Source: Eledone cirrhosa
Lineage: Eukaryota
Direction: 5' to 3'
Assembly (NCBI GenBank): GCA_964016885.1
Contig: OZ024740.1
Location: 89,156,001 to 89,220,000 of the forward strand
Length of the DNA: 64,000 bases
A program made the translations under genes and the position numbers. Positions 23,491 through 52,375 of the stretch are shown here, piece after piece. The notes beneath the pieces are model-generated. The model searched no databases, was not told the origin of the DNA, and saw only the letters and a program-made list of their open reading frames with translations. Each line of letters opens with the position of its first letter. Within the stretch, counting starts at the first letter, position 1.

Positions 23491-23522
23491 ACCTTTCCTC
23501 TCTCTCTGTTTAACCTGCCAAC

Positions 23523-28450: not shown

Positions 28451-30667
28451 AGGAATACTTATTGAGTATGATACAAAAAACAAATGAATTCATTCGACGT
28501 GTCAGGTGGAAAACGCTCCACGATGATAGAAGCCGTATGAACTCACCATCAGAAAGTGGTGTAAACAACAAATTTGGTTTTAAAACGTGTAAAAACCCAC
28601 CCACTAACCCACTATTAGATGCATTTTAGCAGGACCTTATGGACTTAATCCTTAAAATTAAATTCAAGGGACGTAACACCAACAACAAACTGCAGAAAGA
28701 TATTAAAAAACTACTGGACGACCTTAAAAACACCAAAGGAATTGTAGTAAAAGCGGACAAAACATCTAACCTGTATACTATGGACTGCACGACATACAAC
28801 AACATCATTCGAAAAGAATTACATAAAAAATATAGAAAAACGAGTGAAGTAACCCTTAAGCACATCAATGATGAGGCATGCGAAATAGTGAAAAATCTCG
28901 GAATCGAAGATAGGACAGGACCACTCTTACCGGCGGTACCCACCTTCAATCTTAAGGACCACAAGGTAAACTTTGATAATGACCCTAAAATTAGATTAAT
29001 CTGCCCCTCTAAATCAGATATAGGTAAAATAAGCAAATATATCTTAGATAGAATCATCCCCCGAATTAAGGCTAAAGTTAATATTAAACTCTGGGGGAGG
29101 ACCCAAGAAGCAATTAGATGGTTTAATAGCATTAGCAATAAGAATAAATCTAAGTTTATCCAGTTTGATATCGATGAATATTACTCATCGATATCACCTA
29201 AAACTCTGAATAGAGCCATTGAGTTTGCTGAGGATAACTCTGACCTTACAAACGAAGAAATTAAGATTATATTAGAAGCTAGGAAAACTATAGTCAAATT
29301 TGAGAACAGTTATTGGGTTCGTAAATATAGACCCTCCAACTTTGACGTAACAATGGGCTTCTAACGATTCGGTGGAAATAACTGATATTGTGGGGTTATT
29401 TATCGCCTTTAGACTCCAGGAAAAATTCAGTAATCTCCACGGTGGAATATACCGCGACGATGTTCTCCTCCTAGTTAAAAACCTAAATAACCAAAAACTA
29501 GAAAAACTACGCAAAGATATAAGAAAACTACTACTTGAAATAGGACTAACTATAACATATGAATACAACCTTAAGTAGTTAACTTCCTGGATGTCACATT
29601 CAATTTAAACTCTGGTCTGATTAAAACGTTTTATAAATTGAATGAAAATCTCAAGTACGTAAATGTTGGGTCTAACCACCCCATCTCTATAATTAAATCT
29701 ATCCCTAAAAATATTTCCCTTAGAATCTCGGGTCTATCTTCTAACATACAAGTATTTAAGGAACACGCCGAGTACTACGATAACGCCCTTAGTAAAGCAG
29801 GCTACCTCAACAAATTAGAGTATATAGATAAAAACAATCAAAACACCCAAAATAAATCCCACATAAGTAGATATAATAACACAACACCAAACCACACTTA
29901 CTACCATAGTATACACACCAGTAAACCAACAAACAAAACTAATAGAAAGCGATGCAAAGAGTACTTATGGTATAACCCTGAATACAATATCTTCCATTAG
30001 TACAAATTTACCAGTACTCTTCTTTAAAATAGTTAAGAGACATTTTCCTACATCACACAAATACCACAAAACCCTAAACCCTACCACTATAAGACTGTCA
30101 TACTCTACAGCGTTAAACACTAAAAACTTAAGTACAAAGAACACACAAAAAAGTAGACAATACACTACAGAACATAAATAAACCACACCTAAGTTCTTCC
30201 GCATTACTACTCCAGAGAAAACCCTACGTACACAACTGTAACTGCACATATCCTGACAACTGCCCACTCGGCAATAACTGCCTGGAAAAAAATATCATTT
30301 ATAAGTGTACCATTAAATCCGGAGGCAACGAGTGGTATTACGTGGGATTAACGGCAACATCGTTTAAATCTCGATTATATAGGCATTCTTACTCAATAAA
30401 ACACCAGAGCCAAAGAAATGTAACAACTTTAGCAGAAAAAGCTTGGACGCTCAGGGATAGCGATCAAAAGTTTACCATAAATGGGAGAAATTAGCTAAAA
30501 CCCAAAGCTTTTCGATGAGCCAAAATTTCTGCAAATTGTGTAATCTTGAGATATATTACATAATCACACACAAGAAGAAATTGCTGAATAACAGAATTGA
30601 ACGAACATTATTCTGCCGTCACCGAACTAAAACCCTTTTTTCCCACTACAAGCTGAATATTACATAA
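28451..30667 (+). pseudogene. PLE RT-endonuclease polyprotein, few disruptions
   Basis: FIRRVRWK, KADKTSNLY, KDHK, FIQFDI, FDVTMG, IYRDD, NFLDVT, SNHP, WYNP, CNCTYPDNCP (CxCx5C), IIYKC..YYVGLT..FKSR..H, CKLC..E, LLN.R, CRH. Confidence 0.9.
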
Positions 30668-31483
30668 AAGAGGGACATCCCCCCAACTATATAAACTTCA
30701 ATCTAGTTAGAAAAATATAAAAACAATCTTTTCTCAACATATATATGTACATTAATAACCTTAAATTACCACACTAATAATGGAAAGATATGCTGATGAG
30801 AATAGATGCAAATATGCTATAATGAATGTGTATAAAAGCGACCATAAGTATGTATATATTTGTGAAAATGTATATAAATAAGTAAATATATATATATGTT
30901 TGATGTGTATAGTTAGATATAAGTGTATTCATGTATTAAAGTGTTTATATATATATATATACACATAGACTGGAGTATGTATGTATATATGTGTGTGTCT
31001 ATATGTGTGTATATAAAGATAAGTTGAGTATGAAAATGTATACACATGAGCGCGTATGTATGTACATGTATATATGTATATATATATATATGTGTGCATG
31101 TGTATATGTATGTAAGTATGAGCATGTAAGTATGTGTATGTGAGTATATGTATTTTTTAGAGGTGTGCATATATGTTTGTGTGTGAATGCGTGGGCGAAA
31201 GGATACGTAAACTTGAAACAAAAATTTAAGTCTGAATGTAATTAAGTGCAAACACAAAACCAACCATGCATATCTATACTATCTCTAATCCTTCTATAGA
31301 TTTAGAAAAATAACCAATAATATATTGTATAAAGATGTCAAAACAACAGATGGGAATCTAATTACTCACTGCCACCAAAAATTCTTACTGCTATCAAAAA
31401 ACCACTCCCTCAACTATTCTTCTAACAACTTCACCCCTCCCTCCTAATATTCTCTATAAAAACCAAACAGGTCCTCAGTAAAA

Positions 31484-31604
31484 TTATTCTGATGAAATGA
31501 CAGTTGATAATAACATTGACATATTGAATGTCTCCATAACTAATACTTTGTAGATAGCAGCTGTTTTCAGGTTATGTAACTGTTATAGAAACACGTGTCA
31601 ATAA
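31484..31604 (+). ncRNA. Type I hammerhead ribozyme with long stem II insertion
   Basis: ttatt-CTGATGA-a-atgacagtt..(~70 nt)..aactgttat-a-GAAA-cacgtg-TC-aataa; stems I and II pair, stem III is palindromic (acacgtgt). Confidence 0.8.
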
Positions 31605-31638
31605 ATTCCTTTTAACTAAACTGTATCCATTTAAATCC

Positions 31639-31671
<33 letters not shown>

Positions 31672-31674
<3 letters not shown>

Positions 31675-34600
31675 TATGAATATCAAGCCACTACCTGCAG
31701 CCTCAGAAATTCAGGACGTATCGGAGGATTCTTGCTGTTCACAGCAAGCATGCCTTTTGAAGCCTTCCAAAAAGCGTGGCGGGCCAATTTTCTTTAACCA
31801 TCCCTGGACACTTTTTGAGATAGTACCTAGTGCGCCTATGACAATCGGGACCACTTTTACTTCATGGCAGTTCCAAATCCTTTTTACCTCCCACTTTAAG
31901 TCCTGGTATCGGTTAATTTTCTCCCTCTCCTTCTCTTGCACTCTCGTGTCGAATGGGCATGCCACATCCACAATCAGAAACGATCTTTTTTCCTTGTCCA
32001 AAACCTCCATGTCAGGTCTATTTTGTTCCAGTTTCTTGTCCGTCTGTATCCTAAAATCCCACAACACCTTCACCTCATCGTTTTCTATCACCGACTACGG
32101 CTTATGCTCATACCACTCCTCAGAATGTGGTAAATTGTTTACTTTGCATAGGTGCCAGTAGATCACCCTGCCTATCACATCATATCTTCAGCCTTTATAA
32201 TGAGTCTGAGCTAGGTGTTTACACTCGGATACAATGTGAGACACAGTCTCCTCTCTCTCTCCACAGATCCTGCACAGTGGCCTAGCCTTGTAAATATGGT
32301 GTTTCGACCACTTCGTTTTGAGGGCCTGCTCTTGCGCAGCCATTAACATTCCTTCTGTAGCCTTTTTATGGTCTCCTCTTCTCACCAGTTACATGTATCT
32401 GGATCTCTGAATTCAGTTTTATCAAAGAAGGTACTATGAAGGGATTTTTCATGAAGGCTGCTCTTTCTCCTTGTTGCTATTTCCTCCTTGGACATCCCCT
32501 GGTCTATTGTCCTCTCCTTCAGTACAATTCTGAGCATTGGCTCCTTACTATCAGTCACGTATTTGTGTAGGTTGTTTTTCTCCATCTGAACACAGTCCTC
32601 TATGCTGATAAGACCTCTTCCACATTCAGATCTCCTTAAGTAGAGTCTATCGACATCGCCCTCTTGTGGAACAGGTTGTAGATAGTAAATAGCTTCCTAG
32701 TCTTCCTATCAATTTCTTTTTGTTCGGCAAAATTCCATTTCAGAATTCCCGCACTGTACCTAATAATAGACACAGCTCGGGAATTTACTGCACTTATGGC
32801 ATTCCTACTGTTCAGATGTGACTTTAATACGCTTCTTACTCTCCGAATGTATTCAGATCTTATCAATTCCTTCATTTTTTGTTCTTGATGTCATCAGCCT
32901 CCAGAACACCCAAATAGTTGTATCCTTCTTCAGTGTCAATTTCCTTTATCATCTCACCTGTTGGTACCCGGATTCCGTTGCTTCTGCTCAATTTACCCCC
33001 ACTTCATCACAAGCACACCACACTTACTAATACCAAATTGCATGCATATATCATTGCTGATAATACGGACAGTATCAACAAGCACATCCAACTCCTTCTC
33101 ACTCTTCCCGAAGAGCTTAAGATCGTCCATGAGAGGAGGTGATTGATGGTAAGCTCTCCCTTGCCCAAATTGTATCCTGCTCTCACTTTTCGCAGTATAA
33201 TGGTCAGCGGCATCAGGGCAAGGGCAAACAACAGAGGGGACAGACTATCTCCCTGGAGGATACCTCTCTTGATCTTCACAGGATTCTCCAGCTGATGTTA
33301 ACTCTGTTTTCCATGACTTCATACTTTTTCCCAACAACTGTTTGATGTTATCTGCCATCTTGAATATCTCTAGGCTTTTGATGATCCAAGAATGCGGCAC
33401 CATGTCAAATGCCTTTTTGTAGTCTATCCATCCTATGGCAAGACCAGTGTGTCTCCTCTTGCAATTCCTCATTACCATCTTATCAATAAGTAACTGGTCC
33501 TTTGTACCACGGGACTTTTTCGGCATCCTTTCTGTTCGTCCGGTAACAAGTTGTTTGTATGGAGGTGATGGTAGATTTCCTCAGACATACTGCTTGTCAA
33601 CAGTCTCCACATTACGGACAGACATGTGATAGGTCTATAGTAGGTAAAATAATTACCCTTGATTCGGTCTTTCATTACCAGAACTGTGGTACCTTTTGTC
33701 AACCACTCTGGTACATCACCTGACATCAAGCAGTCATTGAACATGGTTGTCAGTTTCGGGTGGAGGGATGTTATATTTTTAATCCAATACACCTGAACAC
33801 CATCTGGGCCTGGTGATTTCCAGTTGGTTAGTTTTTTGGCCTGCCCCTTAATAGTTTCAACTGTGATACTCAAATCAGTTTGTTGGTGTGCCTGTTCACT
33901 AATCTCCATCTGTATTGTCTCAATCCACACTGGTCATTATGTTTAACATCCTGCTCCCATATTCCTCCCCAGAATGTCTTAGTTTGTTCCGCCTCAGGGA
34001 TCAAGTCATTGCCTGTTTCTTTCCCTTTAAGCTGTCCAAACAGCATCTTCTGGTTGTTGTGAAACATGCGGTTCTGTTTATACTGACTGACTCTGCTCTC
34101 GTATCGCCTAATTTTTGCACTCTTTGCTACTATGCGTTGCTTCAGTTCCTCTATGATAATATTTAGCTTTTTCCTCCTAGTTTTGTACTTTATTTCCAGT
34201 CTATTTTTAGTATCTGAGGTTTTAGTGTCCCATTCAGTAGGGACTCAATCTTTCCAATGTCATTTCTCATTTCCCTGATTTGACCATTCAGTCGTTTCTT
34301 CCACCAAGGTTCTGATCTTTCTTGTTTTTTGTTTCCTCTCGCTTTTATGCCAAGTAATTTCCTCACCGCATTTGCTGTTGCTTTGAGGATATTTTTGCAC
34401 TGGTGAAGGCTCCTCGCCTCAAGGTATTGGATGACTTTGTTTACCTTAGCTGTTGTTTCTTTTAACTTTTTCCTGTCTACAAACTTAGGTTCATAGGTCT
34501 CCCACTATCATTGTTCAATTCGTCGACCACTAAATTTAGTATATCAACCAAATCCTGTCCTAGCCTGTCAGCATTCAGCTCCTCAATGGCCGTATCGTTG

Positions 34601-35103
34601 TTCCATCTATGATTTATTTCAGCATTCAGATCATTGTCTGCTTCGGATGGGTCCTCCGTTCTCTCAACCTCTTCACCTTCATTTCCCACTGGCTTGTTTG
34701 CCTGGCATACTCCACCCTCCATCTCCAAGCTAATCTCTCTGCTCAGTTCCTCCAGTTTCAGCTCGCTTATCCACCCATTAGTTCTCATTACCCGAGCCTG
34801 CTCGGCCAATTTTTGTTCATCTAATTTAAATAGACCAATCTCATTCCAGATGTTATGAATCCGTTTCCTATAGCCTTTCTCCTTGGGGTTACTCTTCAGG
34901 TAACCTTGCATAACATTTCTATTCAATTCTTTCGTCCAGTTGGTTCTGGTCCCTTTCCTTCTTCTTCTTCCTCCGACACCAGCAGTATTTGGCTGACATC
35001 CAGGTCCCTGATGCTAAGCCAGGGAGCACCTGCTGAGTGAGAGTCTGTCGCATGACATTCCAGTCTCCACTTCACCGTTATTCGAACTGTTTAGGTTCGA
35101 CAT
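31672..35103 (-). mobile_element. R4/Dong-like non-LTR retrotransposon (RT + restriction-like endonuclease), near full length, decayed
   Basis: [116 protein letters not shown]. Confidence 0.92.
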
Positions 35104-36210: not shown

Positions 36211-37980
36211 ATGGATGTCTCAGATTCACTCCTTCCTCACAATCTAACACCTCACAGTGACACCGCCATTGTAAATATTGCTACGTTTGCCAACACTGGA
36301 AATGTAAGCAGTAGCAATATTTTTAATTTGTCTCTGGCAGACGTTCATTTCCCGCCATTACCAATGACTGCAGGTGTTAAAGCCGCCACCCCCACCACAA
36401 CTGAAACTAAAATTAACAATAGCAAAAATAACGATAACAACAACAGCAACAATGAAATTAAGAAAACTACCCTGAGTTTTGCCAGAGTAGAAAAACGTGC
36501 GAAGCGATCCAGGTAACTCAAGAGGAATTAGAAGAAGCCAAAGGAATGGTAAAGAAAGATGGGTACAGGGTCAGCCTCACCCCACCCCCGACCTAATAAA
36601 ATGGAGCAACGTCGCCTAAGCACCGTGTCTTATCGGACAATTAACATTAAATCGCGCCGAGTGGAACGGGCATCCGAGTCCCAAATCCAAAATGCTTTGG
36701 GACATGTGTGGGCAAATAAAACCCACATCAAAATTGGGCAGAAGTATGGAACCGTGGACGTGTTCTTTGAAACACCACAGGAGGCCAGAGAAAACTCCAT
36801 GACGCCATTAAGAAGTGACGACTTCACACTCGTCCCAAACTATTGTGGCCAGAGACTTGTGAAGATCAGGGTGACCCACGTTCCACCGGCATCGAAATTC
36901 CCTGGCTAATGGCTGCCGTCCTCGCCGGCATCGAGGCCAACACCAAGATATTTGAAATAGCGAAAGAAAAGGAGGAGAACGGGTCCGGATAGGGGATGGA
37001 GCTCCTGATCCAAGCCGACCATAAAATCATTGAGGAGATCCCAGAGGTAATAGACCTCATTGACGGTAGCCACCTCACCGTAATCGTCGAGGGCAGAAGA
37101 CCTAGGTGTGTCGTTTGTGGTGAAGGAACCCACCTAAGGGCTTTCTGGCCTCAGGCTAAAAGGTTGAGGCCTTCTCTCTTACCCCCCAGTGACTCAACCA
37201 TCAACACTACCAGTAGCAGAGATGGCAGCAACAACTGTAGCAGTAACAACAGAAGCAACTGTAACAGCAACAACCCCAGCAACAGTAGCAAAACCCCCAC
37301 CCCCACAACCCAACGCACCAGAACTAGCACTAGCGCCTACACCATCCACCACGCCACAACCAAAACCAACGCCTGTGGAGGATTTTCCACTCCCCGGCTA
37401 ATCGCAACTGGAGACAGATTGTGACGACGAGGAGTGGGAAACGGTATCAGGAAAAAAGAAAAAAAGAAACCAAAAAAGACAAACATTCTCTTCCTTCCCC
37501 CTCCAAAAACAAAATACAGAGGGAAACAAATAAATTATCAAACCAAAAAGTTAGGACAGATATGCCACCATCCACACCAGCATCACCAACCCCATCACCA
37601 CAAACACCAACACCACAAAAGTCACCAAAAAGCGTAACAGAAACAAACACACAACTAACGCAAACAAAACAAAACAACCAAAACGATACATACTACACAG
37701 CATTAAATTAGAACAACCAATTATTACACTACATGCAACACAACACCAGCATCATAGACAAAGACTACACAACAACCAAAATGTTCACACTACCTCCACA
37801 CATACAAACCACTCGCATCACACAGAAACGAACACGACACTAAAACAAAAATTCCCCAAATACATCAGAGACTTCCGACAAACACTCTCCAGGAGGATTT
37901 ATAAGTACATCCTTCCGGAGGAGGCCACGAGCCGTAAAAAGGATGAAGAAACCATCCTTCCTCTACTAGAAGTAAGGTAA
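36211..37980 (+). pseudogene. E4 ORF1 (gag-like)
   Basis: HFPPLP, LSFARV, VEGRRPRCVVCGEGTHLRAFWP (CX2CX4HX4C with last C mutated). Confidence 0.75.
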
Positions 37981-38014
37981 GTGGTTTTTCCCATCTTTTC
38001 CACTCCATTTCAAC

Positions 38015-41000
38015 ATGACCTCACTCAGAATAGGCAGCATAAATGCGCGTGGCTTGGGGTCGTCGTGGAAGCAGGGCCACCTGCTCAACGACCTCAGGTC
38101 ACTAAACATAGATGTAGTGGCCATCAGCGAGACCAGAATCTCTGAAGCACGGGCCTTCGCACCGATCTCCGGCGGCTACAAAGTGTACGCATCTCCCAGG
38201 CGTCCGGGATCGGGGGGGGGGGGGAATCGCTGTGCTTTTTAGGAGAGGTTTGGATCTCGCCATACGGGCCATCTTCCTGGACCCAGAAGGCAAGTTGGTG
38301 GTTCTAGATGTGACCAGCGGAGACGGACAAGCTTTCAGGCTAGTGGCCGTCTATGCCCCGACAGAAGCAGGGCGGCCTGATTTCTTCCGGCGTCTGGAGA
38401 CCTTTCTTGGAACTCCCGCTCTTTAGTTTTAGTGGGCGAGTGGAACGGGATCTTAGATGCACACTGGGACTGTGTGGGATTAGCGGATAGGGGAGGAGGA
38501 TGCAAGAGCCTCACCAACCTGCTCAGGCGTTTTGAACTGTCTGACAGCTACCGATTGGATTTCCCGAATGTGCCAATGTGGACTTGGACAAATCGTATAG
38601 GGTCATCCAGATCATATCTAGATAGAGTATTTTGTAGAGAAATAGATAGGTATAGCATAGGCTGTCCACAATTCAAGATAGTCAGCTACACGGACCACAA
38701 ATTCGTGATCTGTTTGCTTGTCTTAGATAGGCTTCATAGACGAGCACCCGGCTACTGGAAGCTAAACGCGTCCTTACCAGCGCGCAAGCCTACAGAGACC
38801 GGGTTAGCGAACTAGTTAAGCGGGCGTTGACGGTGGCCATCGTCAACAATAAGTGGTGGTTTACTCTGAAAAGAGCAATTAGAATAGAGTTCATTAGGTT
38901 TAGTAAGGCTTTAGCAATAGAGAAAATTAGAGCAGAGGGAGAATTAGTTAGAAAATTAGAAAAGGCGCTTAGCAAAGGCATCGCGACCGACGTACTTGCT
39001 GCGAAATTGGCCCTTGACCAATTCTTCAATGTAAAGCACGAAGGCTGCGTTGTCAGAGCTAGGGTGCGTGCTCTCAGACACGACGGGACGAAGCCGTTCA
39101 ATGGGCCCGAGTGGCGGAGGCGCGTCGTGGCAACAAAGCCACGATCCGGTCTCTGGTGGAAAACGACGGGCGCAAGCTACTCGATCCCGGGCAAATGTGT
39201 GAAGCTTTTCAGCGACACTTCGCTCAGTTGTTCGGTGGCAGCGGCGGGCCCGATCTAAGGATGGACTTTAGTGTCTACCTCGACGGACTGCCGCAGCTCT
39301 CGGCCACTGAAGCCGAGTGTTGCGAAAAGCCGATAACAGCCGCTGAAGTACGGGAGGCAATGACTAGCTGCACAAGGGGCAAATCGCCTGGTTTGGATGG
39401 TCTGCCCTATGAACTTTACGTACATACGCCAGACTTGTTCGGAGGCCTCTTGGCGGACGTCTACTGCATCTGGCAACAGAACGGGAATATTCCCACCTCT
39501 GTGAGCCGAGGAGCTGTGGCGCTGCTGAGAAAGGATCCGAACAAGGGGGATAGCATATATAATTTTAGGCCCATAACTCTGCTAAACGCAGAGTTCAAGA
39601 TTTTGGCCCAGGTGCTAGCAAAAAGGTTGGCGCTTGTCGTTGGTGGTCTGGGGGGAGAGGCACAGACATGCGCCATTCCCGACAGATCCATCCATGACAA
39701 CCTCCACCTCATGCGATACATCGTAGAGAGGGTAGCTAGGGAAGCTGGCACGGGAGGGTCCTTGATCAATTTAGATCAGTCGAAAGCTTTCGATAGGGTC
39801 GACCATGCACAGTGACATCTGCTCTGTGGTGAGAGTGAACGGTCACCTTTCGGAACCGTTCAACATCATGCGCTCGGTCCGCCAATGATGTTCCCCTCTC
39901 GTCCCTCTTGTACGTATTGACACTCGAGCAATTACTGCACAAACTAGGATGCGGAAGATCCGGGTCAGCATATGCGGACGATGTCACCCTAGTGGTGTCG
40001 AACGCCAAACCTATCGAGGCGATCAGCACTACACTAAGAGAATACGAAGCGGTGACAGGAGCAATGATCAACCAGGAAATGTCAGTGGGCCTGCAGCTCG
40101 GCACCTGGAGAGGCAGGTCCATGCCGTCTAACACCGTCGTGGGGCACTGGACGGTCGGACCGGTTAAATTTGTCGGCGTCTGGTTCGGTCCGGATCTCCA
40201 GACGGACAAAAACTGGGACGAGGTGACGAGCAGGGTGGCTTATCTCAGCCAGAAATTGGCAAGGAGGAATCTATCCCTGAATGGTCGTGCAGAGGTGGCT
40301 AACGCGTATATCGCGTCCGTTATCTACTACCGCCTGACCGTCGTACCTTGTCCTAAGACCAGGCTGACTGCGCTGGAGCGTTTGCTCTTTCGCTTTTTGT
40401 GGAAGGGACGCGCTCCGATGGTCAGGCGGTCCATCTGCTGCCAACACTCGCTACGTTGAGGGCTGGGAATGCCGTCGCTGATGATGCGCAGACACGCGCT
40501 CAGGCTACGACATTCCCACCTCTTCCTCGACGGTGATCAGGTGGTGTCGCAGTTTGCCAGACGCGTCTTTCCCCAGCTTATCTCCTTGACGGAGCTGCAG
40601 TCTTGGGTCAAGTGAAGACCGAGAGGGAGCGCTTGGAGACTGGAATGTCTTCAGGCGCTCACAGCCCTCGACCAATCGGGCAATGTGATCGGTGGAAACT
40701 ATAGAGGATTAGTGGAGGGGAAGAGCAACAACGTACTTGGGGAAACTCTAGGCGTCGACGAAAATCAACTCGCCAATCTCTTCGGAAGAACTTTCGGGCC
40801 AGGGCCTTTGGACAACTTCCAGAAATCCCAGGCCTGGCAGTGCTACCGAGGAGCTTTACCAGTTCGGGATAAACACTACAGGAATGGAGGTGCCATCAGC
40901 CTGGCATGTCCGAGATGCGCGCAGGGCGAAGAAACCGTCCTGCACGCAATCGCCCAGTGTCGGAGCATTGCTGACTTGTGGGTTTATGTCGAACACCTGC

Positions 41001-41323
41001 TGTCACGTGTAGGACGGATCCAGCTATCAGCTGAGTCCATCGTGAGGATTGCCCCGCCCTCTTCCTTTAGCTGGGAAGGGCAGGCCGTTTTTATCTGTCT
41101 GGTGGCCATGGCGAAAGAGATAGTATGGTGGACATGTTTGAAAGTGTTGAAGACGAGCACTTACCTGTTAGGTGATGCCCTGATTAACTTTTTCAAATTT
41201 CATTTCAAAAGGAAAATCAGGGTAGAGAGGGAAGTGCTCTCTTCCCAGCATTTTGTTGAAAGATGGGTGAGAGAGGCAAGAATCGCCCGAGTGAATGGGC
41301 CTACTCTGAGTATGTGTCTGTAA
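38015..41323 (+). pseudogene. E4 ORF2: APE + RT + CCHC
   Basis: INARGL, ISETR, VYAPT, RSYLDRV, TDHK, YWKLN, KSPGLDG, NFRPITLLN, LDQSKAFDRVDH, AYADD, CPRCAQGEETVLHAIAQC. Confidence 0.93.
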
Positions 41324-41592
41324 ATTAAAGGTGGAAACTGGGAGAGGGCACTTGCCCTGGTGGTCAGGGTCACTGTGGCTTTTTAATGGGCTTTCTCCCC
41401 GAATGTCCCTAGGAAGTCTCCCCCTTATTGGGGAATTGTTTCATTGTTCTATTATTACATCCTCTGTTTCTTTCTTTTTACACGCAGAAATGCCCATATG
41501 TACCGCCCTGTATTGTCCTGTACTGCCCTTAATGTCTACTTTATGTAAACCCTTGTGGTCAATAAAGAAAGCATTATTATTATTATTATATA

Positions 41593-41647
41593 TAAAGTAC
41601 CAGTAATGCACTGGTGTATTGCTGGCCTTGTGCCTAAAGTAGAAACA

Positions 41648-41660
<13 letters not shown>
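41593..41660 (+). mobile_element. 3' fragment of SINE family A
   Basis: taaagtaccagtaatgcactgg..gctggccttgtgcctaaagtagaaacaatt matches 15164-15222, with (ATT)n tail. Confidence 0.75.
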
Positions 41661-41688
<28 letters not shown>

Positions 41689-42860
41689 TACGAGGTTTGT
41701 CTCAAAAGTAATTGTACTTTCCTGTGAAAAACATGGTAATGCAACACCTTGTTGATTTATATATCGGTTATGACTTTTACGGAACGTGCAGGGTTGCGTC
41801 AGTCGGGAGTTATCTCTGTTTATGTTCGGACATACTTATAAGCTCTTACGTTGGCGATGCAGGAAACATGGAAAATACGCGGTCAAGTTTTGACGGAAGC
41901 TCAACAAATCTACAACCGAAACATTTAATTTTTACGGCAAGTTTTTTGAAGTACGAGTCTGTCGTGAAGTGAAAGTTTTAAGGGGCACAAAGCTTTCAAA
42001 GAGAGCCGATAAAATGCTGAAGACGAACGTCTTTCTGGAACGCCAATTTCCTCACCAATAGAAAAATATTTGGAAGTGGAGCGAGCGGTGATGGTGAAAG
42101 TTTACCGATAATATGTTAGGCTGATTGCAGAATAAACGGGCTTTTGGGGAAAGTTTTGGAAAATTTCTGTGAAGGAAAACGAGAAACGGTTGAACATGCG
42201 TTTGTATTTGCTAAAACGACTTGAAACTGAGTCACATCTTTTAGAAAAAATAATATCAAGAGATCGTTTGGAGTAAGATCCAGCTAAAAAAGTCACATTA
42301 AAATAAATCCCCCTCTTACGATGGGTGTACCCACGAGCAGACTAGAGTGAAAATGATATCATTATCAATGGTTTTTTTTTCTGACAGTCTTGGTATTGTT
42401 CACAATCTTCGCCTCCAGAATAGACAGTTTATCACACCTTCTACAAATATGACTTGGAATCATTGCGGGTTCAGCGTTTCCGAAACGGCTTTGCGGGATA
42501 TTGGGTGCTGCATCGCCATAAGGTGCCTGCATGCACATCACTTTCAATTAAAGAATATATCCTGGAAAACAATAGCCCTACAGCCTCGATCTAGTTCCGT
42601 GGGATTTGAACCTCATGCTTAAGTTAAAATAAAATTTGAAGTGTCATCACTCTAGAAATCATACAGAAAATTGTAACCGATGAGGAAAAGAGACTCATAA
42701 AAAATGACTTCCGCTACTGCTACGACTAATGGAGAGAATGTTGAACCTACTGTGTAACTATACAAGGGTCGTATTTTGAAGGAGATAACATTTAAGTTTA
42801 TGTGAGTATAATCAATATACATTTAAATTCAACATCAGTACTCCTATGTTTGGGTAAAAT
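41689..42860 (+). mobile_element. Tc1/mariner DNA transposon relic
   Basis: Begins TA-CGAGGtttgtctcaaaagt (mariner-type TIR); relic SGTPIS HTH-like segment near 42030; C-terminal W..C..CV..QGSYFEGD at 42730-42790. Confidence 0.65.
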
Positions 42861-44047
42861 ATCGGCGCCTAAGCCCAACCCCAACAGCTTCATTCTTATC
42901 CGAACTGAAACTCAAATTCACATGCGATACACTGCATAGATATATAGATATTTTAACTCTATAAAATTGTATTACCTCTCTGGACTTATGAATGATAAAT
43001 TATTTCCAGAGTAAAATCGATATGACACGTTTAATTATGCTGTCTAAAACCACACAATTTCATGACTACACTCTGAACCCTGATAATGCTTTAAAGCATG
43101 GTATTCATCATATTCACATTTCTATCAAATTATCTGCTTATTCATGCACATATGAATTTGATAAAGATTCAAACAATTTATAATTTTTACATGTTAATCT
43201 CTACTATCGACTTCCACTTCGATTTACAATTTATACTTCTTCGCTACTGTCCATTTGCATATATAAATTTAGGTATGACCATCCAGAAATACTTGCATAT
43301 ATACTATTGCGCTAGATCTTATACTCTTTACTCGATATATCTTACTCCAAATCTATTGAATACTCCACATACACTCCATATGTTTAATTGTTTACTTATC
43401 TAATACAAGTCACACATTCATACTAAATATACGAGGGTTGGCTGAAAAGTACACAGCTTAATTTCAAAATTGTCAACTCTCACCCTTATTGCTTATATCG
43501 TGATGTCACCAAACTGGCACCCGATCCTTATAATTAGACGACACAATATAAATTAAAACACCAGCACACGCTGGACGTATATGTGACTAAACTAGATCGC
43601 TAATCTCAACGACTAAAAAAACATTCCAAGAGCTTGCTATTATATGCTATGTGCTGAGTGAGTTTTGAATAAGCAACATGTCATGTCCTATAGTCTTCAT
43701 AACACATACACTAATAATTCCCGCTTGCTGATGACATGTTAGAAGAACGTATTCTTTGTCTAAGGCCTAACGGACACTAATTGATAAATTGAACTATAGA
43801 AATGTAGAAGCATCGCTTCGTATTTACTTACACACACAGACTCAAACCTATGTATATATATGTGTGTGTGTGTGTGTTTAAAATATAGCTCAGAACCGAG
43901 AACAAATATCATAATGAGTGTTAATGCAATCGTATATTGGCTCCCATGCTATTGTAATATTTACAATGATTATGATGTTGAAGATCATTTGCATTTGCAC
44001 AAGGATAAAAATAATATGTTATGGGAATCGGGAATCTACTAAGGACC

Positions 44048-44361
44048 TGTAGCAGGAGTTGCCTCCCTTGTTGTGACACTCACATCACCAATAGATTAAC
44101 GCTCTCTAGATAGGAAGTACCATTTCTGTAACTTCCGTTCAAACCCTATAAAGGGAATAACTGTAAGCTCCCTATCTCTCATTTGCCTTTTCTGCTCCTG
44201 GCCTTCGGCCACGCGCGTTCCCCTTGCAACCAAACGGTAACTAAAATGTTGCTTCATTCTCTCCTCTATTCATTGACATGTCAACTATACTGTTCTATAT
44301 ATCCACAAATTGTTAATTAATTATTATACACACAAACCACATCTCTTGTTATACTTCTACA
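44048..44361 (+). mobile_element. Candidate solo LTR
   Basis: TGTAG...CTACA termini, ctataaa TATA-like box at ~44146, 314 bp; flanks share only acc, so the TSD is not convincing. Confidence 0.4.
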
Positions 44362-44864
44362 ACCCAGTAAAATGCTATAGACCCTTTCGAGCCCCAGATC
44401 AGTAATTATGTTATCGCTTTCAACGTGAAATTCAATGTTCGCACACATACTTTTCAGTCTTCAATAAGATATACATTATACACTAGTTTAATTCTCATAT
44501 TTCTTCTCAAGGTAAATGGAGATTGAATAAATGGCACGTAAACCTTTTAGAGGAAACAGACTTCAAATACATACATTATCCCCAAAGTCTTATATTGCAT
44601 TCAGAAATCAATCCTTTTTACAGAATTCCTTTACATAGCAAATTGAAAACATGGCACTTTTTCTCGTTTCAGGGATTACCGTCATCACTCCGTATATTGT
44701 ACGTTAGAAGTGAATTGAAAACATAACGTCGGCGATTAAATTTCTGCATCCGATGTCGTAGCTGAAATCTTTTTTACATAGATTTGATAGCCAAGAAGAA
44801 GAAGCTGTTCGGAAAATGTCAATATATAATATAATATAATATAATACATTATAATGTAATATAA

Positions 44865-45054
44865 TATAATTGTTTCTACTTTTGGCACAATGCCAGCAAT
44901 TACCCAGTGTATTACTGGTACTCTATTTTATCGACCCCATAAGGATGAAAGGCAAAGTTAAACTCGGTGGGGTTTGAACTAAGACCATAAAGGGTCGTAA
45001 CTCTTTGCTGCAAAGCATGGCGTCCGACCCTCTACCGATACTGCTAAACCACCG
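44865..45054 (-). mobile_element. SINE family A, full copy
   Basis: Reverse complement of the 15040-15225 unit, with an (ATATT)n tail at 44820-44870. Confidence 0.8.
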
Positions 45055-45440
45055 TATAATAACTGGTGATTACACTTGCGATGGTGTCAAACGCGAAGGC
45101 TTGTACTCTCAGTTGCTTAACATTAAGGAAACCGGGGTAAGTACCAGCTTAATGAGACTGCGGGATTGGGAGAGAGTTTAGATTTAAAATCTTAGAATAT
45201 ATCCGTTGAATATTGACGGACGCATACTATTCTTATTATGGCTTTGGGATGAATCTTACTATTCTGCAGTATAAAGAATTAATATATCTACCGACATATG
45301 TATACAGATGCATACCTATGCTAGCAGATATATATGTTTTGTCTTAGTAACTTTGTAGTTCTATGCAGGGGAATGCAGACCAATTATATGAAAGACGTAA
45401 ATAAGAAAGTTATGAAAATTAACCTACTTACTAAAATTTC

Positions 45441-45519
45441 ACTCCAACTAATTAGTTTCTGTAAGGGGTTAAATACAGTTATGTAATACCTGTAGAGAAG
45501 CCTTACGTCATCTGGGAGT
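45441..45519 (-). ncRNA. Hammerhead copy A, core mutated (CAGATGA)
   Basis: Same fold as copy D but U4 changed to A. Confidence 0.7.
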
Positions 45520-45971
45520 CTATTCTCAGCTAAGTTACCAGGCAATGCGGGGACACTGGAAACTTATATAATAATAATTCAGTGGATGGAAAAAAGCGAA
45601 AAAAGCGAGCGGGGTTAGATTCCAAGCCACTGAAAAATTCACTGCCTCCTTGGTCAAGTGGCAAATTCAAAAGAATTAATCACGTGAGACTGAGGTTAAC
45701 CAGCTTGGAGTGGGGGTGCTATTAAGACAGAGCCTAACCACTACTATCAGTCACAGTAGTAATGTGGCAAATTTTGCTCAACAAATAATTTGGAGAATAA
45801 TATAAAGAATTAATATATCTACCGACATATGTATACAGATGCATACCTATGCTAGCAGATATATATGTTTTGTCTTAGTAACTTTGCAGTTCTATGCAGG
45901 GGAATGCAGAACAATTATATGAAAGACGTAAATAAGAAAGTTATGAAAATTAACCTACTTACTAAAATGTC

Positions 45972-46050
45972 ACTCCAACTAATTAGTTTCTGTAAGGGGT
46001 TAAATACAGTTATGTAATACCTGTAGACAAGCCTTACGTCATCAGGGAAT
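45972..46050 (-). ncRNA. Hammerhead copy B, intact core
   Basis: attcc-CTGATGA-c-gtaagg..ccttac-a-GAAA-ctaattag-TT-ggagt; stem I retains pairing via a U-G wobble. Confidence 0.82.
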
Positions 46051-46498
46051 CTATTCTCAGCTAAGTTACCAGGCAATTCGGGGACACTGGAAACTTATAT
46101 AATAATAATTCAGTGGATGGAAAAAAGCGAAAAAAGCGAGCGGGGTTAGATTCCAAGCCACTGAAAAATTCACTGCCTCCTTGGTCAAGTGGCAAATTCA
46201 AAAGAATTAATCACGTGAGACTGAGGTTAACCAGCTTGGAGTGGGGGTGCTATTAAGACAGAGCCTAGCCACTACAATCAGTCTCAGTAGTAATTTGGCA
46301 AATTTTACTCAACAAATAATTTGGAGGAGAATATAAAGAACTAATATATCTACCGACATATGTATACAGATGCATACCTATGCTAGCAGATATATATGTT
46401 TTGTCTTAGTAACTTTGTAGTTCTATGCAGGGGAATGCAGAACAATTATATGAAAGACGTAAATAAGAAAGTTATGAAAATTAACTTACTAAAATTTC

Positions 46499-46577
46499 AC
46501 TCCAACTAATTAGTTTCTGTAAGGGGATAAATATAGTTATGTAATACCTGTAGAGAAGCCTTACGTCATCTGGGAGT
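46499..46577 (-). ncRNA. Hammerhead copy C, core mutated (CAGATGA)
   Basis: Same U4-to-A change as copy A. Confidence 0.7.
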
Positions 46578-47050
46578 CTATTCTCAGCTAAGTTACCAGG
46601 CAAATTTTAGTAAGTAAGTTTATTTTCATAACTTTCTCATTTACGTCTTTCATATAATTGTTCTGCATTCCCCTGCATAGAACTACAAAGTTACTAAGAC
46701 AAACCATATATATCTGCTAGCATAGGTATGCATCTGTATACAAATGTCGGTAGATATACTAATTCTTTATATTCCTCTCCAAATTATTTGTTGAGCAAAA
46801 TTTGCCAAATTACTACTGTGACTGATAGTAGTGGCTAGGCTCTGTCTTAATAGCACCCCACTCCAAGCTGGTTAACCTCAGTGTCACGTGATTAATTCTT
46901 TTGAATTTGCCACTTGACAAGAAGGCAGTGAATTTTTCAGTGGCTTGGAATCTAGCCCCGCTCGCTTTTTTCGCTTTTTTCCATCCACTGAATTATTGTT
47001 ATGTAAGTTTCCAGTGTCCCCGCATTGCTTGGTAACTTAGCTGAGAATAG

Positions 47051-47129
47051 ACTCCCTGATGACGTAAGGCTTCTCTACATGTATTACATAACTGTATTTA
47101 TCCCCTTACAGAAACTAATTAGTTGGAGT
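47051..47129 (+). ncRNA. Hammerhead copy D, intact type I
   Basis: actcc-CTGATGA-c-gtaagg..(34 nt)..ccttac-a-GAAA-ctaattag-TT-ggagt; predicted cleavage after 47124. Confidence 0.85.
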
Positions 47130-48102
47130 GAAATTTTACTAAGTTAATTTTCATAACTTTCTTATTTACGTCTTTCATATTGTGCAGTATATACATTTTG
47201 GTAGCCCACACACTAGTTGGATCTCAGTAATAATCTCTTTCTATTTTGCATGATAACACACCATGATAAAAAGATGTAGAGTGATGAGGAGTGATTGATC
47301 CTGCTTAAACCATGATTTAATAATTAGCCTCTCCAATGTTACATAGGTGATACTACGAAGAATGTTTAAATTGATTTGGGCTCACACTACTATTTTTATT
47401 TTGTTATCCATGCGAACATGTAAGACAATTTAGATGCAACTACAACTACTCAAATAATTTAATATTAGATTTTGTGATCATAGAAATATACTACGTGCTA
47501 TGTATGGCAGAGGATCTAACAACGAATACATGACATATTAACTCGATAGACAGACCATATACTGTCGTCGTCCTATGTAACACACTTTCATACTTTTTAT
47601 ATGGTTATTAATTCATGTCCTCATTGCAGATTGACTTTACAAAACTGCAATTCAAGAAAATGGCATCAATCCACTTTCTTGATTCGCTGTATCCCTTGAG
47701 TAAATGTCCTTTCTCTAAATCTGTACCTCACACTTACGGGTAACCCACAAACATTTTAGCTGTTTTCCTCTCCCTTATCGTAGCCAGCAGAGTGTAAACT
47801 TACGGTTATTGTCCTTGCATTGTCACTGCAAATAATGATAATGGCCCCGGAAATGTGATATGGCACATTACGAATATTATGTTTCCCATACTGCTATATT
47901 TCACAGATTGTTCGCGAAGAGCTTAAGAAACTTTCAAGATGACGCAGCAAAATATTAACAATATATGTCATGTGATACATTAGCATGCAGCACACTATAA
48001 CCAAAAACGTAAAGTGCAGTCAATAACTTCCAGAATACAAACACACACACATACACCACTCACAATCGTATTGATCTATATAAATATGCGAAGCTTTAAC
48101 TC

Positions 48103-48148
<46 letters not shown>

Positions 48149-48601
48149 TCTCCTTCTCTCTATCCCCTATCTCTCTCTCCTTCTCTCTCTCTCTCTATAT
48201 ATATATATGTCCATCTAATATATCCCCTCTTAGTTCTGTCTCACCTGTCTACTATCTTCTCTCTTTCTCGCTTTATCTCTTTCTATATATATATATGCAT
48301 ATGCGTGTTTGTGTGTGTGTAAGACAGTGAGACTATGTGTGCGTCGGTAAATGTGTATTTGTGTACAATGCATATGCCTTTATTCTCTAGAATTTCATAT
48401 TCCCATACGTGCTTCAATAAATTCTTACTTGCATTAAATATTACAAATGTTATAAAATACAATAACAAAATAAAACTCTCGATTACACAATGAATTGTAT
48501 TCTGTATGATACTGACAAAACACATTCACACATGCATAAACGTTATATAATTTATCTATCTACACTGATATATGTTTTCAAATACAATTGATGTATACTT
48601 G

Positions 48602-48661
48602 AACGTAGATATTGCCTTCATATTCATGTACTTTCATTCGTAAGGTTATATAGAAATAATC

Positions 48662-48703
<42 letters not shown>

Positions 48704-48759
48704 TATTTCTATATAATCTACGAATGAAAGTACATGAATATGAAGGCAATATCTACGTT
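48602..48759. repeat. Inverted repeat centred on (TA)n
   Basis: aacgtagatattgccttcatattcatgtactttcattcgta..gaaataatc / (TA)n / reverse complement; arms ~60 bp with few mismatches. Confidence 0.9.
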
Positions 48760-48781
48760 ATATCTATATATATATATATAT

Positions 48782-48846
<65 letters not shown>

Positions 48847-49026
48847 AAGATAGATAGAATTATGAATTAGCTTCAGGCATAGCTGTATACATTTATGTAT
48901 AGAAATTTCGTATTTCTAAAGAAACAAGGTATGTTTGCAGCTAAATATTTAGGAGGTCGTAGCTTCTTCAGAAAACACCGGGCCTAGTGCTTTCTGGTGG
49001 TGTCCAGCAGAAGCAAAGAAACAATG

Positions 49027-49064
49027 GTCGATGCATTTCGGACTTATCTGGTCCTCATCAGGAC
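49027..49064 (-). ncRNA. Minimal type I hammerhead in a ~327-bp terminally redundant unit (48867-49242)
   Basis: gtc-CTGATGA-ggac-cagataa-gtcc-GAAA-tgca-TC-gac; direct repeat ttagctt.aggcatag..gtatagaaa..cgtat..taaagaaacaa at 48867 and 49194. Confidence 0.85.
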
Positions 49065-49644
49065 GATCCCTCCCAAACTAGCGACTGCTGGACTTTCATT
49101 TGTATTCTCTCATTTATGTAAATGAGATGATTAAGCTCATTTGCATATGAAGCTGCATAGTTGGATCAATTGATAATAAAATAGAAATAGCATTTAGCTT
49201 GAGGCATAGATGTATAGAAAATCCGTATCTTTAAAGAAACAATATATATATTAATATGTGTGTGTATGTGTGTCTGTGTATCTATTATAATATTTATACA
49301 ATATGTATGAAATGTCGAACATACAAATATGTATATATATCATATAAAATCTATAATATATATATATATATATATAAATATATATAAAGAAGAAATTAAA
49401 AGATGATTAAAAAAGTTCCATATATTTTATTATGCGCATTTCGAAAACAACGTCATCCTGGGACAAAAATTGTGTTCTCATCAGTTAAAATAAGGTAACA
49501 TGATATGAGGCCTAAAAACACGTGTCAACAAGAAAGTTTCCAGTCTACATATGACGAAAAAAAATATAAGAGAAGAGAAAAAATAGGAAAAATGAAAAAA
49601 AGGAAAAAAAAATTGAAGAGAGGAAAAAAAGAAAGAAAGAAGGA

Positions 49645-49653
49645 GGAGAGAGA

Positions 49654-49729
<76 letters not shown>
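49645..49729. repeat. (GA)n microsatellite
   Basis: Direct reading. Confidence 0.95.
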
Positions 49730-49731
<2 letters not shown>

Positions 49732-50246
49732 CTTGATCGGGAACGCTGTCAAAAATGAAAAACATTTGTAAATAAAGGCTAACAAAAATAAATAATTAAA
49801 TTAATGATGTGTATGTGCTAATATTATGAATATTAGAGGTCTAGAATATAGAAACTGGGTATATTATTGTATATTGGATTGAGAGTGTAAAAATGTATTA
49901 ATAAAATAAAATAAAATGAAATTAAAAGTAATTATAATAATTATAAAAAGGGTTTTTTTAAATAAAATAAAATAAAATAAATATACGTACATATATATAT
50001 GTGTGCATGCATGTATATATATATACATACTACTGTACGTCTGTATACATACATGTATGTACGTGTACATACATATAATTAAGTAACAGCCGTACTAAGA
50101 GTGGGAAATGAAATTTCGTTTCATTTTTTCGTTTATCGTTTTCGGTGCACCCGGCCGATTAACCCACTCGATATGCAAATTGGGTCACTCAGCCTTTAAT
50201 ATGCATAAGGTAAGTATATACGTTCAACAATCTGGCAGGAAGGTAT

Positions 50247-50289
50247 ACGTTGCTGACGATAGTTAATAAGCTTGAAACTAGTACAGCGT
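50247..50289 (+). ncRNA. Minimal type I hammerhead in a ~419-bp terminally redundant unit (49983-50490)
   Basis: acgttg-CTGACGA-t-agtt-aata-agct-t-GAAA-ctag-TA-cagcgt; atacgtacatatatatatgtgtgcatg..tactactgtacgtctgtataca at 49983 and 50402. Confidence 0.8.
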
Positions 50290-50546
50290 TCCATTGTCAG
50301 TGTTGAACAAACGAACAGCGATGGTTGCTAGACATAACGGCTATATACGGGTTGTTTGTTTACAAACACACCGATCATTATAATAAATGTTCGGTGAATC
50401 CATACGTACATATATATATGTGTGCATGTATGTATATTTATACATACTACTGTACGTCTGTATACAAATATGTATGTATGTGTACATACTTACATATATA
50501 TATAGATATATATATATATGTATATGTTTATATATATGTTTATATA

Positions 50547-50630
<84 letters not shown>

Positions 50631-50684
50631 TATGTATATATATATACATATGTATATATATACATATATATATATATATATGTA

Positions 50685-52375
50685 TGGTGGGGAAGGGGAT
50701 TCAAAGATCTCCTTGATGAGGGCTCCATAGACCTCATCATGCACTCTCGTTACGTAGACCACATTAATATAGTAATAAGGACAACCCCACAAAGAGAGTA
50801 CTAACAAGTATGATTTAGAATGTCGCACGATGGAAAGCATCCAGCAGATAACTAATTCCATACACCAGAGTATAACTTTAACTATCGACTAGCCTTCCAA
50901 ACAGACTAACTCTATTAGACCATCTCTATTAGACACGGAACTCTGGATTAACACTATAGAGGAGAGGGCCCAAATTCTCCACTCACGCTACTCTAAACGC
51001 ATGGCTTCCAAATACCTGATACTCAAAAACTCAGCGATGTCCAGTAGTGCTAAGTTTAATATTCTGATCACAGACATGGTACGAGTGATGAAGTACGTGT
51101 CCCGCATGTACGACCCAACTGAAATGGAAAGACACATCCAACAATTCATCACCCGCATGCAGTTCTTTGGCTACAACGAAAGAGATAAAATCAGAGTATA
51201 CGAAGGAGCCACGGAGAAGTATAAGACCCCCAATAGAACTGGATATGAAAGGAATTTGCCCACTATATAGGAGCAAATCATGGAATAGCTTAGATAGGAC
51301 TAAACTAATATAAAGAAAGCCACCCCATGGTACGACAACCAGGCACACCAGAGTGTCATGTTCGTGGACGCTACCCCTGGAGGGAAATTAGCTAACCAGT
51401 GTAGAAAGTCCCTGAGAAAGACCCACTTAGAGATTAAGGTTGTAGAAAAGCCAGGAACTACCATTAAATCCCTGATCAGTAAAACATACCCTTTTAAGAA
51501 AACCAACTGTAATAATAGGAAATGTATTATATGTAAAGTAAACCCCCGCATAAACTGTAAAACTAGAAACGTAGTCTATAGCATAAGATGTACAGAGGGT
51601 ACTTGAGGAAACATGACAGCAACATACATAGGCGAGACAGCTCGTAGGATAGGTGAAAGGATAGACCAACACTGGGTGAACTAAAAGGACGAAAAAACGG
51701 TGCAGTACTATACGAACACGCCAGACAACAACATGACGGTAACATAGACCACATGGAAATTAAAATAATATCTACACATAGAAATGACCCAGCAGATAAA
51801 CAAATCAGAGAGGCAAGTGGAATAGAACTTAGAAGGCCAAAACTAAGCAGAAGAAATGAATGGAATAACAACAACACCCAAACAAACAATACTGACCTAA
51901 GAAAAATATAAATAAATAAATAAACACAAGCACAATAACAACAAACACATATAAACACACACTAGTAAACTAAGATAGAATGCAATGACCAAAATACAGT
52001 CACCCAAACGCGAACACACACCAAACATAATACACACACGCAAACGCATGCGCAGAGAATGAGACAAAAATAAATAAATAAATAAACAGATTAAATAATG
52101 ATGGCGTAGATATACAATACAACAGGAGGAACATAATAATCGCACCACTGACGATGTTGCAGATGTGCAACGAAAGAACTTTGTTAAACTATATATATGT
52201 GTTTGTGTCTATATTATATCTGTATTTTTTTACCTTTGGTCAGTCAATGGTAAACAGAATAAATTAACTGATATAAAAGATAAGAAAGCGAAAACCAAAC
52301 AAACAGTGAGTGTGTTCTGTTATTAATTCTGGCAATATTATTACAACAATATGACCCTCCCAAAGTAAAACAATA
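50685..52375 (+). mobile_element. Penelope-like element 3' half (RT end, Cys-rich linker, GIY-YIG) with pLTR
   Basis: RYVDHI (YVDD relic), SKRMASKYLI, MFVDATPGG, IKVVEKPG, CNNRKCIIC..NCKTRNVVYSIRC, YIGETAR..ER; inserted in (TA)n. Confidence 0.85.
52144..52185 (+). ncRNA. Hammerhead motif in PLE pLTR, stem I degenerate
   Basis: acca-CTGACGA-t-gttgca-gatg-tgcaac-GAAA-gaac-TT-tgtt. Confidence 0.65.

Follow-up and report, generated by a model that had tools for sequence, protein, structure and literature searches.

An abundant, ORF-less hammerhead repeat of Eledone cirrhosa with two fixed termini and the features of a non-autonomous Hydra-type PLE

Inverted hammerhead array within the window

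The window analyzed in this work comprises 64,000 nt of the Eledone cirrhosa genome (contig OZ024740.1 of assembly GCA_964016885.1, positions 89,156,001 to 89,220,000 of the forward strand). It carries an array with a monomer period of 531 bp, arranged in 2.5 tandem and 1.1 inverted copies, in which the left array (45270–46603) and the inverted arm (46602–47180) share 95–98% identity. No stop-to-stop ORF of at least 120 aa was found from 41323 to 50307, and re-measuring of the period and arms upheld the description given in an earlier note on this DNA, i.e., an ORF-less 531-nt monomer in about 2.5 tandem plus about 1.1 inverted copies. The array is bordered by a 14-bp duplication (45260–45273 and 47178–47191, + strand) with one mismatch between the copies, also recorded in that note and confirmed here by a search of the + strand of the window at no more than one mismatch, in which only these two copies matched. 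Both copies overlap the array ends: the last 4 nt (TATA) of the left one double as the S2 end and the first 3 nt (TAT) of the right one as the S1 end, where S1 and S2 are the two fixed termini of the family, located at +61 and +177 after the predicted hammerhead cut.

Read in the hammerhead sense, both arms of the window copy point outward, with their 5′ ends central and their 3′ ends towards the target. The left arm (45270–46603, − strand) starts at monomer position 432, spans two full monomers, and ends in S2 (+176/177) at 45270, and the right arm (46602–47180, + strand) begins 7–9 nt past the cut site and extends through one monomer to S1 (+60/61) at 47180. They meet in a head-to-head inversion junction (46602–46603) with 2-nt microhomology, joining monomer positions of about 432 and about 7. 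The 116-nt tail between S1 and S2 (45270–45385, − strand), with two conserved hairpins, is present at this array end only. The array had been said to start and stop mid-monomer; both ends do lie inside the monomer, but they are the family's fixed termini (S2 at the left, S1 at the right) and not random points. A possible Pol III A/B-box was spotted by eye on the antisense strand.

Four hammerheads are located in the array. Those at 45972–46050 (− strand, predicted cut 3′ of the U at 45977) and 47051–47129 (+ strand, predicted cut after 47124) have the intact CUGAUGA core, which had been ascribed to each copy, whereas the cores at 45441–45519 and 46499–46577 (both − strand) are mutated to CAGAUGA (U4A), and these two ribozymes are likely inactive. 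With 2/4 ribozymes mutated, the insertion in the window is probably decaying. Neighbouring units that both have a complete hammerhead, the arrangement called "active" by Li et al. (2026), were not found at the window locus and are present at other loci. Contigs derived from reads (two runs, one sample) reach both junctions but extend into the element by fewer than 31 letters and hence do not count as bridging it, and no empty-site joint for this insertion was found among the matches listed for these contigs.

The hammerhead at 47051–47129 is an intact type I, PLE-type ribozyme with a 5-bp stem I (ACUCC/GGAGU), CUGAUGA, a 6-bp stem II, GAAA, a palindromic stem III (ACUAAUUAGU), and the GUU site, all in agreement with the earlier description, as is the predicted cut. 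The 34-nt loop previously assigned to stem II in fact holds a second, covarying hairpin. In the window copy, stem II is preceded by an unpaired C and followed by an unpaired A, and an unpaired base on either side (C or A, and A, respectively) is conserved family-wide. Paired cells make up 93% of the family ribozyme alignment (36–45% in slid controls), and double-sided changes in stem II and in the hairpin inside its loop were counted in 55 cells, compared with 18 in shuffles, these counts being inflated by the relatedness of the sequences. The covariation set consisted of 28 representatives out of 39 at <93% similarity, with 11 left out as truncated or having internal deletions or duplications; among the 28, stem III is invariant and the changes in stem I are one-sided. 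Of 199 sampled motifs, 142 have the commonest core in fully intact form. Judging by its conserved and covarying stems, the ribozyme is under selection.

A canonical hammerhead, as presented in PMC4209133 and PMC7229834 (6-bp helix I, 4-bp helix II, and loop 1–loop 2 contacts), is not matched by the repeat, which departs from it in the 5-bp helix I, the 6-bp and extended helix II, and the extra bases at the helix II base; minimal PLE-type motifs are also accepted as hammerheads by Li et al. (2026; 10.64898/2026.07.22.740005). The marks of PLE hammerheads given in PMC4209133, i.e., short helix I, long helix II, one additional nucleotide separating A9 from G10.1, and palindromic helix III, are all shared by the repeat, together with the G10.1–C11.1 pair. 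Unlike them, the repeat has a second inserted nucleotide, which separates C11.1 from G12, and its helix II is lengthened by an internal loop and the second covarying hairpin. The second extra base is not described in the available text of PMC4209133 or in the core-variant section of PMC3088659. An Rfam scan of the region 40000–52000 at E up to 1 gave no hammerhead family, only AT-repeat microRNA noise. The ribozyme variant is missed by Rfam and by descriptors requiring a 10.1–11.1 pair adjoining the core. Folded in isolation, the ribozyme has a minimum free energy structure other than the active one (−13.7 kcal/mol vs. −7.1 kcal/mol for the active fold).

Genome-wide dispersal and two fixed termini

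A DNA search of the 3.0-Gb genome gave 2,578 candidates on many contigs, 40 of which were scored, while the genome-wide search with an intact-core pattern returned 2,609 exact matches, and 9,057 with a wider pattern (0 in reversed-pattern controls). The repeat is therefore not limited to this locus, and the dispersal predicted in the earlier note was borne out. The subfamilies diverge by about 20%. Natural cut-to-cut monomers (n = 66) have 507–554 nt and no ORF, the GC content of the monomer is 36.5%, and no RT-GIY-YIG ORF was attached to the monomer in 140 loci, in line with the retrozyme-like, ORF-less nature proposed before and contrary to a unit always attached to a PLE ORF.

Cervera and de la Pena (2020; PMC7229834) described retrozymes of animals together with their circles and proposed a PLE as partner, and the PLE origin of retrozymes was argued by Li et al. 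(2026). Like the non-LTR retrozymes of both reports, the repeat is composed of non-coding, low-GC monomers in tandem, with a type I hammerhead in every one, and it is dispersed, with PLE dependence proposed. The monomer length of non-LTR retrozymes is 150–450 nt in PMC7229834, which the 507–554 nt of the repeat exceed, and 51–972 nt in 10.64898/2026.07.22.740005, a range into which they fall. In contrast to those elements, the ribozyme of the repeat is PLE-type and not canonical, a specific partner family can be proposed, and in most copies two fixed termini are combined with an inverted arm, features that are undescribed in the available text of the two reports.

Element ends were mapped in two samples: sample A, the 30 best DNA matches, biased to long query-like copies, and sample B, 70 loci lying near-consecutively along one contig, taken from the intact-pattern list and containing AGG-stem subfamilies only. 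After removal of nine duplicate loci and then of 9/100 mapped elements (locus edges or <87% identity), 91 elements with 148 outer 3′ ends remained. Seventy-two of these ends are at S1, 62 at S2, and 14 elsewhere. As 134/148 ends of dispersed copies fall at two fixed sites, the variable start points expected in the earlier note are wrong. Inner 5′ ends are variable, and the inversion junctions mostly overlap by 1–5 nt.

Simple head-to-head inversions constitute 58 of the 91 elements. All those with two canonical ends (47/47; binomial p = 7 × 10−15) combine one S1 with one S2, and in each of the 47 the tail lies at one element end only; the other simple inversions have one non-canonical end (10 elements) or two (1 element). 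Four S2/S2 pairs appeared in a tally made with a single reference (41/55 mixed), came from low-complexity matches, and were absent when subfamily-matched references were used. TA runs adjoin 120/134 canonical ends, and most copies lie in (TA)n. Clean target duplications, anticipated in the earlier note for dispersed arrays, are exceptional: among the loci scanned, a clear duplication of non-TA sequence was seen at the window locus alone (14 bp). A search for empty sites, with flanks lying in other repeats, gave two candidates among 100, neither informative.

These results bear on the possibility that the repeat is satellite-like DNA spread by DNA-level duplication, with the hammerhead-like motif kept by descent. 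Such an origin could account for the tandem layout, for some variants being common to adjacent copies, and for the two mutated window cores, but the presence on many contigs, the fixed 3′ ends with variable 5′ ends, the strict S1/S2 pairing, the target duplication, and the covarying RNA stems make it extremely improbable.

By contrast, the combination of partial tandem copies, an inverted copy, a one-sided tail, and (TA)n targeting is the architecture of PLEs (PMC8557442, PMC3846280), in which the tail lies between two internal RT start sites (PMC11167929). The EN+ PLEs of the Hydra clade (Craig et al. 2021, PMC8557442) likewise have partial tandems, an inverted 5′-truncated copy, a tail at one end, and (TA)n flanks, and in the Anolis Poseidon element PAc (Frangieh et al. 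2024, PMC11167929) the hammerhead is also located upstream of two internal RT start sites. The repeat differs from EN+ PLEs in having no ORF and in its tail of 116 nt (about 86–164 nt in co-resident Hydra families), as compared with the published 30–40 bp. Moreover, no difference in start sites between the strands was reported for PAc in vitro, whereas in the repeat one arm always ends at S1 and the other at S2.

This architecture and the PLE-type ribozyme would also suit a monomer that is the pseudo-LTR of an autonomous PLE, with ORF-bearing copies unsampled and the arrays representing 5′-truncated debris. Hydra-like protein fragments do occur inside 21/140 loci; they are, however, scattered at 11–1,563 nt from the monomer arrays, in mixed families and orientations, and in the one locus (L094) where such a fragment adjoins, in matching orientation, a 5′ end that is truncated, the fragment is cut inside the endonuclease domain. 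A Pfam search of four PLE fragments gave no match. Since, in addition, the 66 natural monomers are ORF-less and the monomer is found in none of the four ORF families discussed below, the pseudo-LTR reading is largely refuted and we regard it as very unlikely. On its sequence features, the repeat is a real, abundant non-LTR retrozyme, probably acting as a non-autonomous Hydra-type PLE.

Insertion mechanism and RNA template

It is quite probable, given these features, that a non-autonomous, ORF-less hammerhead repeat ending at two internal sites is inserted in trans by the RT-endonuclease of a Hydra-clade PLE. Transcription of the hammerhead strand would run across tandem monomers, with the ribozymes, probably dimerised via the palindromic stem III, cutting the transcript; the monomer would probably be ligated into a 531-nt circle, which would regenerate tandem copies. 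The PLE protein may bind the hairpins of the 116-nt tail and nick both strands of TA-rich DNA; two target-primed cDNAs would then be started on the hammerhead-sense RNA via TA microhomology, one from S1 and the other from S2. They would stop at variable points and be joined head to head by microhomology, yielding the tandem-plus-inverted array. The orientation of the arms, each with its hammerhead-sense 3′ end on the outside, is the one required by twin target priming.

Arms of one monomer or longer account for 74/148. As every event truncates, elements are <2 kb, and arms nevertheless reach at least one monomer, tandems must be regenerated. The junctions at the cut site are clean, with 17–18 nt between anchors in 218/221 and the exact six letters in 203, and sloppy end-to-end jumping is therefore disfavoured; precise template jumping seems improbable. 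Shared variants number 14.6 per kb within loci vs. 2.9 between them, the arms of one locus share a haplotype, and at the window locus a locus-private variant was found in 5/6 pieces, i.e., in all the pieces spanning that site. The long arms, clean junctions, and common haplotype fit a circle, which is favoured as the template, and we consider it somewhat more probable than the opposite.

Two observations are harder to reconcile with it. The 5′ ends are enriched at +1 to +31 past the cut (11/67 in sample B, p = 7 × 10−5; 4/28 in sample A, p = 0.06), an excess which fits linear cut templates or stalling and not an endless circle. Furthermore, four or five variants at the window locus are common to the left-arm monomers only and absent from the right arm, and one circle alone is no explanation for these. 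Both are among the evidence for a linear read-through multimer, uncut or partly cut, serving as the template of the same PLE-driven insertion; the hammerhead would then trim transcript 5′ ends only, and tandems would be kept by transcription of long source arrays and later unequal exchange. It is further favoured by 14 S2 arms that stop in the first pass, nine of them within 40 nt of S1, the pattern predicted if two primers share one molecule, and by unprocessed RNA having been the dominant substrate of the Anolis PLE (PMC11167929). Against the main reading as a whole, insertion of that PLE in vitro did not require cleavage (PMC11167929), and 8/9 Xenopus retrozyme dimers failed to cleave (10.64898/2026.07.22.740005). 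However, the sampled elements are short (157–1,962 nt) and a linear template can only lose length with every event, so that some step rebuilding the tandems is required in a family whose subfamilies differ by about 20%; no long source array turned up among the sampled loci. We regard the linear multimer, uncut or partly cut, as the less likely template.

Hydra-clade PLE families and the candidate partner

The same genome contains at least four Hydra-clade PLE families with intact ORFs of 785, 830, 832, and 713 aa, the clade being assigned by the motifs given in PMC8557442. The Hydra motifs (RWK, DKT, CxCX5C linker, C-terminal GIY-YIG, CxxC, and CxH) are present in all four, with RWK replaced by RWR in three; the hammerhead pattern was found in 3/4 families, and their insertions have TA flanks. 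The 785-aa open frames exist in many near-identical copies, and the lead to this family was a decayed PLE elsewhere in the window (28444–31644); the 830-, 832-, and 713-aa families were found with two homologues as queries.

The two-site rule of the repeat is followed by the three ORF families sampled deeply enough. Counted from the hammerhead of the 785-aa family itself, 25/25 of its ends are at +111 or +229, and 6/6 two-ended copies are mixed. In the 830/832-aa families 35/35 non-edge ends are at two sites 164 nt apart, with 7/7 pairs mixed; the 713-aa family has two main ends about 86 nt apart. The resulting tails are of 118 nt (785-aa family) and 164 nt (830/832-aa families), compared with 116 nt in the repeat.

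The monomer itself is absent from all four ORF families. The 832-aa family resembles the repeat in several respects. Its S1 ends in TTTCATATA, the same as S1 of the repeat, a hairpin with compensating changes follows S1 in both, and its S2 and the motifs just past it are similar. The global alignment of the repeat with this family gave z = 4.06 (0/1000 shuffles), and z values for the 830-, 713-, and 785-aa families were 1.56, 0.59, and 2.38, respectively. Unpaired bases flank the long stem II on both sides in the 830/832-aa hammerhead (core U4C), and the 832-aa one has a palindromic stem III; in the 785-aa hammerhead stem II is directly paired. The likeness is patchy, being made up of short motifs and structure: an nhmmer profile of monomers reached the 832-aa family only at E = 0.52, below low-complexity matches, and most BLASTN matches between monomers and the loci of the 713-, 830-, and 832-aa families were of low complexity. 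The 785-aa family, with its 118-nt tail, was also considered as the partner and rejected, as the tail similarity was weak (33/2,000 shuffles), higher scores came from other AT-rich stretches of that element, and a shared 9-mer was not conserved across subfamilies.

We infer that the 832/830-aa lineage is a fairly probable partner of the repeat; that the partner is another Hydra family is a less likely alternative, and an unsampled PLE family could be nearer to the repeat than the 832-aa one. The PLE dependence suggested in the earlier note thereby gains support from both the PLE architecture and the candidate Hydra partner. A parallel is offered by the PLEs MRC1 and Chlamys-N4 of Chlamys (PMC8557442; PMC9977147), which are also non-autonomous, with head-to-tail copies and microsatellite targets, but belong to the N-terminal-EN clade, are mostly devoid of hammerheads, and share clear 3′-end sequence with their partner, unlike the short motifs and structure of the repeat.

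Retrozymes as PLE derivatives, the inverted PLE architecture, and two-site initiation are already published. Not found in print were a named Hydra partner, the strict S1/S2 pairing, the 116-nt tail, and the ribozyme variant. In the literature, as far as its available text goes, neither this family nor a Hydra-dependent retrozyme nor the pairing rule is described, although Repbase, Dfam, or the supplements of PMC8557442 could hold the family; hammerhead, ribozyme, and Hydra are not mentioned in the main text of the octopus repeat annotation (PMC13282606). For the reinsertion of animal retrozymes, PLEs and circular templates have so far been proposed in the sources cited without a named enzyme or start site. 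The genome of E. cirrhosa provides a minimal pair of a 531-nt RNA, for which both start sites are mapped, and several intact Hydra PLE proteins that are high in copy number and match it in architecture, which makes trans-mobilisation, partner specificity, and circular vs. linear templating testable in the published in vitro PLE assay. The rule of one S1 and one S2, observed also in autonomous families, suggests a simple model of the PLE inverted-repeat-plus-tail structure, namely asymmetric twin priming.

The last feature concerns the microsatellites at the element ends. In subfamilies with the TCTCTATA template at S2, 10/12 ends carry 4–14 TC units vs. two units in internal copies, and TC expansion was found in 0/50 TCTT ends. 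Genome-wide, 253 sites are expanded and 319 unexpanded; of the first 30 in the unexpanded group, 28 are internal. The same expansion was seen in 3/5 S1 ends of the 830-aa family, and the last 7–10 nt are repeated at 2/35 Hydra ends. This suggests that TC units may be added by reiterative RT initiation; however, expansion is just as frequent (37/41) for TC pairs next to unrelated long TA runs, and therefore later slippage is an equal explanation. A more far-reaching reading, which we find rather unlikely, is a viroid-like circle of 531 nt that mimics both RT start signals of a Hydra PLE and thereby parasitises it. An enzyme dimer would start rolling-circle cDNAs at S1 and S2 on two nicked strands, with reiterative, telomerase-like slippage on template dinucleotides at initiation writing (TA)n/(TC)n, and, if so, the elements would write much of the (TA)n/(TC)n which they seem to target.

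Hydra-clade Penelope-like elements

At least four families of Hydra-clade Penelope-like elements (PLEs) with intact ORFs (open frames of 785, 832, 830, and 713 aa) were identified in the E. cirrhosa genome, where intact ORFs are carried by the loci L141 (positions 2622–4943), L164, L165, and L179, and near-identical copies of these families are numerous. The lineages share ~40% identity with each other. In the three families sampled deeply enough, inverted copies have termini strictly one of each kind, and the tails of the four families (~86–164 nt) are longer than the published 30–40 bp.

Within the window, a decayed Hydra-type PLE of the 785-aa family was distinguished on the forward strand (28444–31644), its ORF being disrupted by stops and frameshifts. 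This copy is inserted into a LINE-like sequence and terminates at the +111 site of its family (counted from the family's own hammerhead), which is followed by a (TA)n run. Further downstream, the translation of a 125-aa frame (50893–51270, forward strand) resembles by eye the C-terminal RT thumb of a different, Naiad-like PLE type. This frame showed no similarity to the Hydra protein and gave no match in the Pfam search.

Conserved sequence features of the repeat and of the PLEs

The motif GT(T/C)GAGC is present in the 531-nt hammerhead repeat (monomer positions ~195–203) and in the 5' UTR of each of the four Hydra families, in every case 15–25 nt past S2 (in the repeat, the fixed 3' end at +177 after the predicted hammerhead cut). 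Also conserved among the repeat subfamilies are a palindrome, CACGTG, and a TATA-like sequence upstream of the ribozyme. Moreover, the repeat contains a conserved hairpin, TTCAGTGG...CCACTGAA (window 45576–45623, forward strand; monomer positions ~350–400), which, when read on the strand opposite to the hammerhead, resembles by eye the Pol III A and B boxes.

The 830- and 832-aa families retain a hammerhead (L164:1188–1224 and L165:1186–1222) with U4C in its core (CCGAAGA), and its long stem II is bordered by unpaired A and G.

Other repeats in the window

Inspection of translations by eye indicated two decayed Helitron-like Rep/PIF1-helicase remnants (1116–4420 and 6466–9355, forward strand). 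Decayed LINE remnants, also recognized by eye, were Tx1-like, with endonuclease and RT (19334–20655, 21662–26819, and 36993–41323, forward strand), or RTE-like (31711–35013, reverse strand). Immediately to the left of the retrozyme array there is a short repeat of very high copy number (44900–45060), probably a SINE, whose depth is much greater than that of the retrozyme.
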